Source of the DNA: Escherichia coli
GTDB lineage: Bacteria > Pseudomonadota > Gammaproteobacteria > Enterobacterales > Enterobacteriaceae
DNA length: 64,000 nucleotides
Strand: one strand, 5' to 3'
Assembly (NCBI RefSeq): GCF_003334385.1
Contig: NZ_QOWN01000005.1
Shown: positions 47,190 to 47,221 of the stretch, in pieces
Position numbering within the stretch: the first letter of the stretch is position 1
Layout of the letters: every line of letters starts with the position of its first letter
Program-made: the position numbers and the translations under genes
Notes under the pieces: model-generated
Told to the model about the DNA's origin: nothing
Seen by the model: the letters and a program-made list of their open reading frames with translations, nothing else
The model's database searches: none

Positions 47190-47221
47190 AAAACTCCTCT
47201 CCCCCAAATCCAGAGGAGAGG
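47190..47221 (-). terminator. Hairpin plus T-tract between yadH and yadI (possible attenuator)
   Basis: ctcctctccccc-aaatc-cagaggagagg stem; TTTT on minus strand after the stem. Confidence 0.45.

Follow-up and report, generated by a model that had tools for sequence, protein, structure and literature searches.

A hairpin in the yadH-yadI gap of Escherichia coli as a probable intrinsic terminator adjoining a proposed CRP-activated yadI promoter

Introduction

Canonical intrinsic terminators of E. coli consist of a stable stem-loop on the coding strand that lies a few nucleotides beyond a stop codon and is followed by U's; the U-rich tract lies immediately 3' of the stem and is about 7–9 nt long. 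One example is the hpt/can hairpin (49703-49725), located in the stretch of 64,000 nucleotides of E. coli DNA analyzed here, which we refer to as the window and whose positions are used throughout. Situated between convergent genes (window 49699-49729), it is a bidirectional terminator with Term-seq 3' ends (Adams et al.) at MG1655 142003 (+) and 141973 (-), corresponding to window 49699 and 49729. Leaky intra-operon terminators likewise place a hairpin and a short U-tract between genes on the same strand. Class II CRP-dependent promoters, finally, carry their CRP site near -41.5, where it overlaps the -35 region.

The hairpin between yadH and yadI resembles the canonical terminators in its stable stem-loop a few nucleotides after the stop codon, in the U's that follow on the coding strand, in RNA 3' ends a few nucleotides past the stem and in a position that stays the same although the stem sequence differs from genus to genus. 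It differs by its short U-tract of 4 U followed by GAC. Furthermore its arms are pure pyrimidine and pure purine and include three G.U pairs, and therefore it works in one direction only. At the hpt/can hairpin 3' ends have been mapped for either strand, whereas the yadH hairpin is without a T-run on the opposite strand. From leaky intra-operon terminators, with which it shares the short U-tract between same-strand genes, it differs in that the downstream gene yadI has its own regulated promoter. This promoter in turn resembles the class II type: the site agrees with the CRP consensus at 8/10 positions, its dyad lies 29.5 nt from a conserved TAnACT, and activator footprints from a Reg-Seq preprint as well as CRP ChIP-exo signal fall on it. 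It departs from that type in its FNR-like left half-site TTGA, which doubles as the T-run of the terminator, and the element adjoins the hairpin and is not the hairpin itself.

Neither the 3' terminus with its hairpin, listed in a published supplement, nor the CRP site, contained in the preprint, is new. The present analysis adds the pattern of conservation across genera, the geometry of -41.5 and the observation that the U-tract and the CRP half-site have bases in common.

Results

Genomic context

The window is E. coli K-12-type sequence in reversed orientation. Coordinates were converted as window = 191702 - MG1655 coordinate, anchored on the end of yadH at 144472 (PMC10687069, Supplementary Data 4). 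A 251-nt query across the hairpin site showed 100% identity to K-12 and many other strains, and the region occurs a single time in 5425 of 5426 complete E. coli genomes, under annotated yadH and yadI. The genes concerned are arranged as follows:

47997-48923, minus strand: yadG (ORF list and RefSeq annotation)
47230-48000, minus strand: yadH coding sequence, ABC transporter permease (ORF list; RefSeq annotation of identical DNA)
47232-47230, minus strand: yadH stop codon UAA (sequence)
47138-47132, minus strand: yadI Shine-Dalgarno sequence AAGGAGG (sequence)
47125-47123, minus strand: yadI ATG (sequence)
46685-47125, minus strand: yadI coding sequence, orphan PTS EIIA-like protein (ORF list; RefSeq annotation)
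45392-46621, minus strand: yadE (ORF list; annotation)

The gap between yadH and yadI comprises 104 bp (47126-47229).

Structure and sequence of the hairpin

A preliminary description of this DNA had placed a hairpin followed by TTTT in this gap on the coding strand, and both the sequence and RNAfold agree with it. Read on the minus strand from the yadH stop codon the order is UAA GGCUAU UUCCUCUCCUCU GGAUUU GGGGGAGAGGAG UUUU GACGG, with the following elements:

47212-47223, minus strand: 5' arm UUCCUCUCCUCU, pyrimidine throughout (RNAfold; sequence)
47206-47211, minus strand: loop GGAUUU (RNAfold; sequence comparison)
47194-47205, minus strand: 3' arm GGGGGAGAGGAG, purine throughout (RNAfold)
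47190-47193, minus strand: U-tract UUUU, abutting the stem and doubling as the left flank and half-site of the CRP site (sequence)

The stem predicted by RNAfold contains 12 bp (47223-47212 with 47205-47194; 6 G-C, 3 A-U and 3 G.U) and closes a loop of 6 nt. It starts 7 nt past the UAA of yadH on the coding strand, leaving 6 nt between stop codon and hairpin. The stem had been called a GC-rich polypurine/polypyrimidine stem: its arms are indeed pure purine and pure pyrimidine, whereas GC-rich is half true with 6 of 12 pairs being G-C. The coordinates 47190-47221 originally given for it enclose the hairpin but leave out the two outermost pairs, U.G and U-A. In the common E. coli variant the loop reads GGAUUC and gains one extra G-C pair.

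In a 51-nt context the hairpin has an energy of -21.1 kcal/mol (z = -2.64; 3 of 200 shuffles fold equally well) and the 12-bp stem is retained when folded in a 121-nt context. Since the three G.U pairs correspond to C/A mismatches on the opposite strand, that strand folds to no better than -13.9 kcal/mol. Such a bias suggests selection acting on the RNA of the coding strand. A bidirectional terminator was ruled out, as the opposite strand folds weakly and is without a T-run after the stem.

Other types of element were considered as well. A 34-mer of the hairpin is single-copy in the window as well as in 5425/5426 E. coli genomes; a 48-mer is likewise single-copy in the window and per genome, which rules out a REP/BIME-like repeat element. 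H-DNA or a triplex was also ruled out, since the purine and pyrimidine runs are the arms of an inverted repeat and not a mirror repeat on one strand. An Rfam scan of 44000-51000 at E <= 1 found nothing at the hairpin, its sole match being a chance snoRNA elsewhere.

The T-run comprises only 4 T followed by GACG, so that the tail UUUUGACG offers 4 contiguous U directly 3' of the stem. A generic terminator scan of the window with a threshold of at least 5 T in 8 gave no entry for the yadH-yadI hairpin because the T-run is only four long. With a U-tract this short, below the scan criterion, termination may be incomplete.

When both strands of the window were scanned, the hairpin turned out to be the most stable single hairpin abutting at least 4 T, its 11-bp core having an energy of -18.1 kcal/mol. 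With dinucleotide-shuffled sequence 0.6 comparable sites (<= -18 kcal/mol) were obtained per 128 kb; scaled to a single gap of 104 nt and a single strand this is about 5e-4. Could the hairpin then be a chance inverted repeat devoid of function? Its local-shuffle z of only -2.6 would allow this, as would the window-wide count, where one site <= -18 kcal/mol against 0.6 expected is not significant alone. The hairpin is, however, specific in position and strand, and further observations given below speak against chance.

RNA 3' ends at the hairpin

The TRS study (PMC10687069, Supplementary Data 2 and 3) lists a 3' terminus on the + strand of MG1655 at the hairpin in two RNAtag-seq datasets:

MG1655 144507-144515: peak in the Barsheshet RNAtag-seq data, dominant position 144511, mean R 0.85, significant in 2/3 replicates (PMC10687069)
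MG1655 144508-144518: peak in the TRS authors' LB RNAtag-seq data, dominant position 144514, mean R 0.73, significant in 3/3 replicates (PMC10687069)
47184-47195, minus strand: published 3'-terminus peaks combined, MG1655 144507-144518 (PMC10687069)

The dominant ends at 144511 and 144514 correspond to window 47191 and 47188, located 3 and 6 nt beyond the stem. The hairpin had been described as terminator-like from its sequence, with 3'-end mapping named as one way to check this. Published termini in the U-tract in two datasets (PMC10687069), placing RNA 3' ends at the hairpin, now bear this description out, together with the conservation of the hairpin at its position across Enterobacteriaceae.

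In the LB dataset the terminus is assigned to yadH with the same predicted hairpin and carries the class 'Primary' (PMC10687069), a label that this study reserves for genes in the final position of every EcoCyc transcription unit to which they belong (PMC10687069). The listed maximum U-tract is 4, other 'Primary' termini in the sheet having 2-9 (PMC10687069). The value R = L/(L+D) is roughly one minus the local read-through over a 67-nt downstream window (PMC10687069). Here it is a rough and confounded proxy of read-through, and R understates termination because this downstream window includes the likely yadI start.

No 3' end at the hairpin appears in the curated Term-seq lists that Adams et al. 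2021 give for three conditions, although the neighbors hpt, can and panD are present. Low expression of yadGH may account for this absence; the yadH coding sequence shows about 0.13 read starts per nt in the TRS data (PMC10687069). The supplements of SMRT-Cappable-seq make no mention of these genes, and those of TERMITe hold no entry for the hairpin site. Regarding the neighboring genes, we noticed that the panD 3' end of Adams et al. (MG1655 146275, - strand) corresponds to window 45427 (+), 39 nt past the panD stop and inside the convergent yadE coding sequence. In the same study a Rho termination region is given antisense to yadE at MG1655 145798 (window ~45904).

Conservation across Enterobacteriaceae

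We scanned one genome per species for YadH and obtained 80 Enterobacteriaceae loci, most of which show yadH-yadI-yadE synteny. All 68 yadI-bearing sequences, which come from about 25 genera and as a comparison of species are not phylogenetically independent, carry a hairpin with no fewer than 8 bp, which begins 4-12 nt downstream of the yadH stop. The stem itself falls into at least 8 unrelated sequences among these loci:

CCUCUCC: Escherichia, Citrobacter, Superficieibacter
GCCCGGCG: Enterobacter, Lelliottia, Leclercia, Silvania
UCCCGGCAG: Kluyvera
GGCGCUUCGC: Klebsiella, Raoultella
AUCCCCCUC and GCUUCCCC: Cedecea, Buttiauxella
AGCCCUCC: Franconibacter
GAGGCCUUCA: Atlantibacter
UCCCCCGGG: Pseudocitrobacter

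The best hairpin after the yadH stop had a median energy of -19.0 kcal/mol, whereas the medians were -10.6 for coding controls (Mann-Whitney p = 1e-10) and -8.8 for the sequence following the yadI stop (p = 1e-12). Within Escherichia the changes are a U-to-C in the loop that adds a pair and a U-to-C that converts a G.U into a G-C pair. In an RNAalifold analysis of 16 sequences of the Escherichia/Citrobacter type, MAFFT misregistered the slippery arms and the covariation counts were unusable; folds of the single sequences were used instead.

These data also bear on the question of a chance repeat. The position is kept across genera while the stem sequence turns over, the hairpin is near-invariant in 5425 genomes and RNA 3' ends have been mapped to it. 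The mapped ends and the cross-genus conservation effectively refute the chance origin, to which we assign a negligible probability.

At least 4 T among the 8 bases after the stem are present in 45/68 sequences, the main exceptions being Klebsiella and Raoultella. In nine loci of Klebsiella, Raoultella and relatives the first 50 nt after the yadH stop contain a hairpin of 11-17 bp, the next 8 bases of which include only 0-3 T; the T's of the CRP half-site follow about 10 nt further on from the stem end. In Klebsiella and Raoultella the stem may be a protector of the 3' end or a non-canonical terminator.

A protective role might be extended to E. coli. The hairpin would then not terminate transcription at all and would only halt exonucleases as a 3' stem, after Rho-dependent or other termination downstream, or after processing. 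Trimming by exonucleases also yields ends 3-6 nt past a stable stem, the 3' ends of Rho-dependent transcripts being a subject of Dar and Sorek 2018 (PMC6061677). Such a role would agree with the short U-tract of E. coli and with the hairpins that Klebsiella and Raoultella retain without an adjacent U-tract. Most genera, however, do have a T-rich tail. In addition the yadI start codon, which has a strong Shine-Dalgarno sequence, follows the stem by only about 65 nt; judged by sequence, this would leave little untranslated RNA for the loading of Rho, and Supplementary file 2 of Adams et al. has no Rho termination region nearby on the yadH strand. We regard a purely protective stem as very unlikely and infer that the 3' ends stem from termination and not from trimming, with Rho probably uninvolved.

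Several loci without yadI were also found. In Pseudescherichia vulneris and 'Escherichia sp. ESNIH1' (locus L044, 3269-3280; locus L054) yadI is absent and yadE apparently starts 5 nt past the yadH stop (TAATCAACATG), with no hairpin between them. Judging from this gene order, the adjacency of yadH and yadE in these two suggests a functional link of the YadGH transporter with the YadE deacetylase-family protein. In five loci of Kosakonia and Siccibacter yadI is missing and yadE follows 127-153 nt after yadH. There a hairpin is still located after the yadH stop, and in several of these loci T-runs follow it or lie nearby.

A CRP-type site and promoter next to the hairpin

Downstream of the hairpin lie two conserved elements:

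47174-47195, no strand assigned: CRP-type 22-bp site AGTTTTGACGGCTATCACCCTT (Reg-Seq preprint; cross-genus conservation)
47150-47155, minus strand: -10-like hexamer TAGACT (anchored comparison of 58 distinct sequences)

The core of the CRP-type site consists of TTTGA (47192-47188), N6 = CGGCTA and TCACC (47181-47177), with the dyad between 47185 and 47184, and agrees with TGTGA-N6-TCACA at 8/10 positions. A Reg-Seq preprint (10.1101/2025.05.13.653802) reports an active yadI start site together with the activator site GTTTTGACGGCTATCACCCT. This 20-mer corresponds to window 47194-47175; it starts at the last base of the hairpin and takes in the entire T-run. The authors' assignment to CRP is based on the PWM score together with published ChIP-exo data for CRP; CRP was not recovered by their own mass spectrometry (10.1101/2025.05.13.653802). 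An earlier version of the preprint also reported a separate active start site for yadE (10.1101/2025.05.13.653802).

Unlike the stems, the CRP site and the -10 hexamer are kept in sequence and register. TGA-N6-TCA is located 64-66 nt before the yadI ATG in 66/70 yadI-bearing loci, and the flanks are conserved too, giving the consensus tTTGAc-N4-aTCACC. The left half-site is TTGA (FNR-like), with T for the consensus G, in 55/58 distinct sequences. The hexamer reads TAAACT in most other genera, and its first base keeps a fixed spacing of 29.5 nt from the CRP dyad (58 distinct sequences). If the hexamer is the -10 element and transcription starts about 7 nt downstream, near 47143, the dyad would come to lie at -41.5, which implies a class II geometry. 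In the preprint the dyad is assigned to -34.5, counted from the start site given there (10.1101/2025.05.13.653802). The two values are not in real conflict, because that start site is only model-predicted.

A sigma-70 promoter composed of TTGACG (-35) and AACAAT (-10) at 47191-47164 was discarded as the principal promoter: the AACAAT hexamer has variants in E. coli itself (AACCAT, AACTAT) and is not kept in other genera, in contrast to TAGACT/TAAACT 30 nt further on. We also noticed a putative 12-codon ORF at 47153-47191 (minus strand; TTG ACG GCT ATC ACC CTT TAT CAA CAA TGG TCA GGG TAG), which starts in the T-run, 4 nt past the Shine-Dalgarno-like GGAG of the purine arm, and whose sequence outside the promoter elements is not conserved.

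The promoter bears on the proposal that the hairpin lies inside a yadGHI-yadE operon and attenuates read-through. In that case yadG, yadH, yadI and yadE would form one operon and the hairpin would be a deliberately leaky internal terminator, its main job being to keep yadI and yadE below the transporter genes. Such an arrangement is suggested by four genes on one strand with short gaps, by a U-tract of just 4 U and by R values of 0.73-0.85, which are not near 1, as well as by yadE following 5 nt after the yadH stop in P. vulneris and 'Escherichia sp. ESNIH1'. The hairpin also begins 7 nt past the stop codon, and a terminating ribosome so close to a terminator could lower the termination efficiency. 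The reported CRP-activated promoter of yadI, however, is located right after the hairpin with a fixed geometry in 66/70 loci, and yadE is reported to have its own active start site. Moreover the 'Primary' label makes yadH the last gene in its EcoCyc transcription units, and R understates termination, as its downstream window spans the likely yadI start. These observations speak against the operon model with attenuation as its purpose, and we consider it unlikely.

Discussion

The explanation that we favor, with a probability of about 0.75, is that the hairpin and its UUUU form an ordinary intrinsic terminator of the yadG-yadH transcript, separating it from an independent, CRP-activated yadI unit. 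RNA polymerase leaving yadH would form the 12-bp stem 7 nt after the stop codon, pause on the short U-tract and release the RNA with an end 3-6 nt beyond the stem, which would then shield the released 3' end from exonucleases. Overlapping the T-run, the CRP-activated promoter, probably of class II, would drive yadI independently. The hairpin would thus divide two differently regulated units and probably keep incoming transcription off the CRP-dependent promoter. As the sequence has only four U and the stem begins 7 nt past the stop codon, the terminator may plausibly leak to some degree, and the efficiency of termination would then be less than complete. Attenuation survives as a minor component of this boundary terminator and not as its organizing principle.

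The DNA of the terminator's U-tract is also the left half-site for CRP, and the 3' ends at 47191 and 47188 are located inside the CRP core, which raises the question whether the two functions are coupled. Bound cAMP-CRP might then act as a roadblock and alter stop or read-through of yadGH; in the other direction, transcription continuing out of yadGH might remove CRP from its site and occlude the promoter of yadI. We think such coupling highly doubtful. That the left half-site has T instead of G might reflect a trade-off between the needs of a terminator and those of an activator site. The overlap of terminator tail and activator site is compact; nothing suggests a special mechanism.

Correcting the idea of a single yadGHI-yadE operon matters little beyond annotation. 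The comparative data give some support to the recently proposed CRP-activated promoter of yadI and suggest that it has a class II geometry. Overall the result separates yadH and yadI into different transcription units within an envelope-related gene cluster that is poorly characterized.
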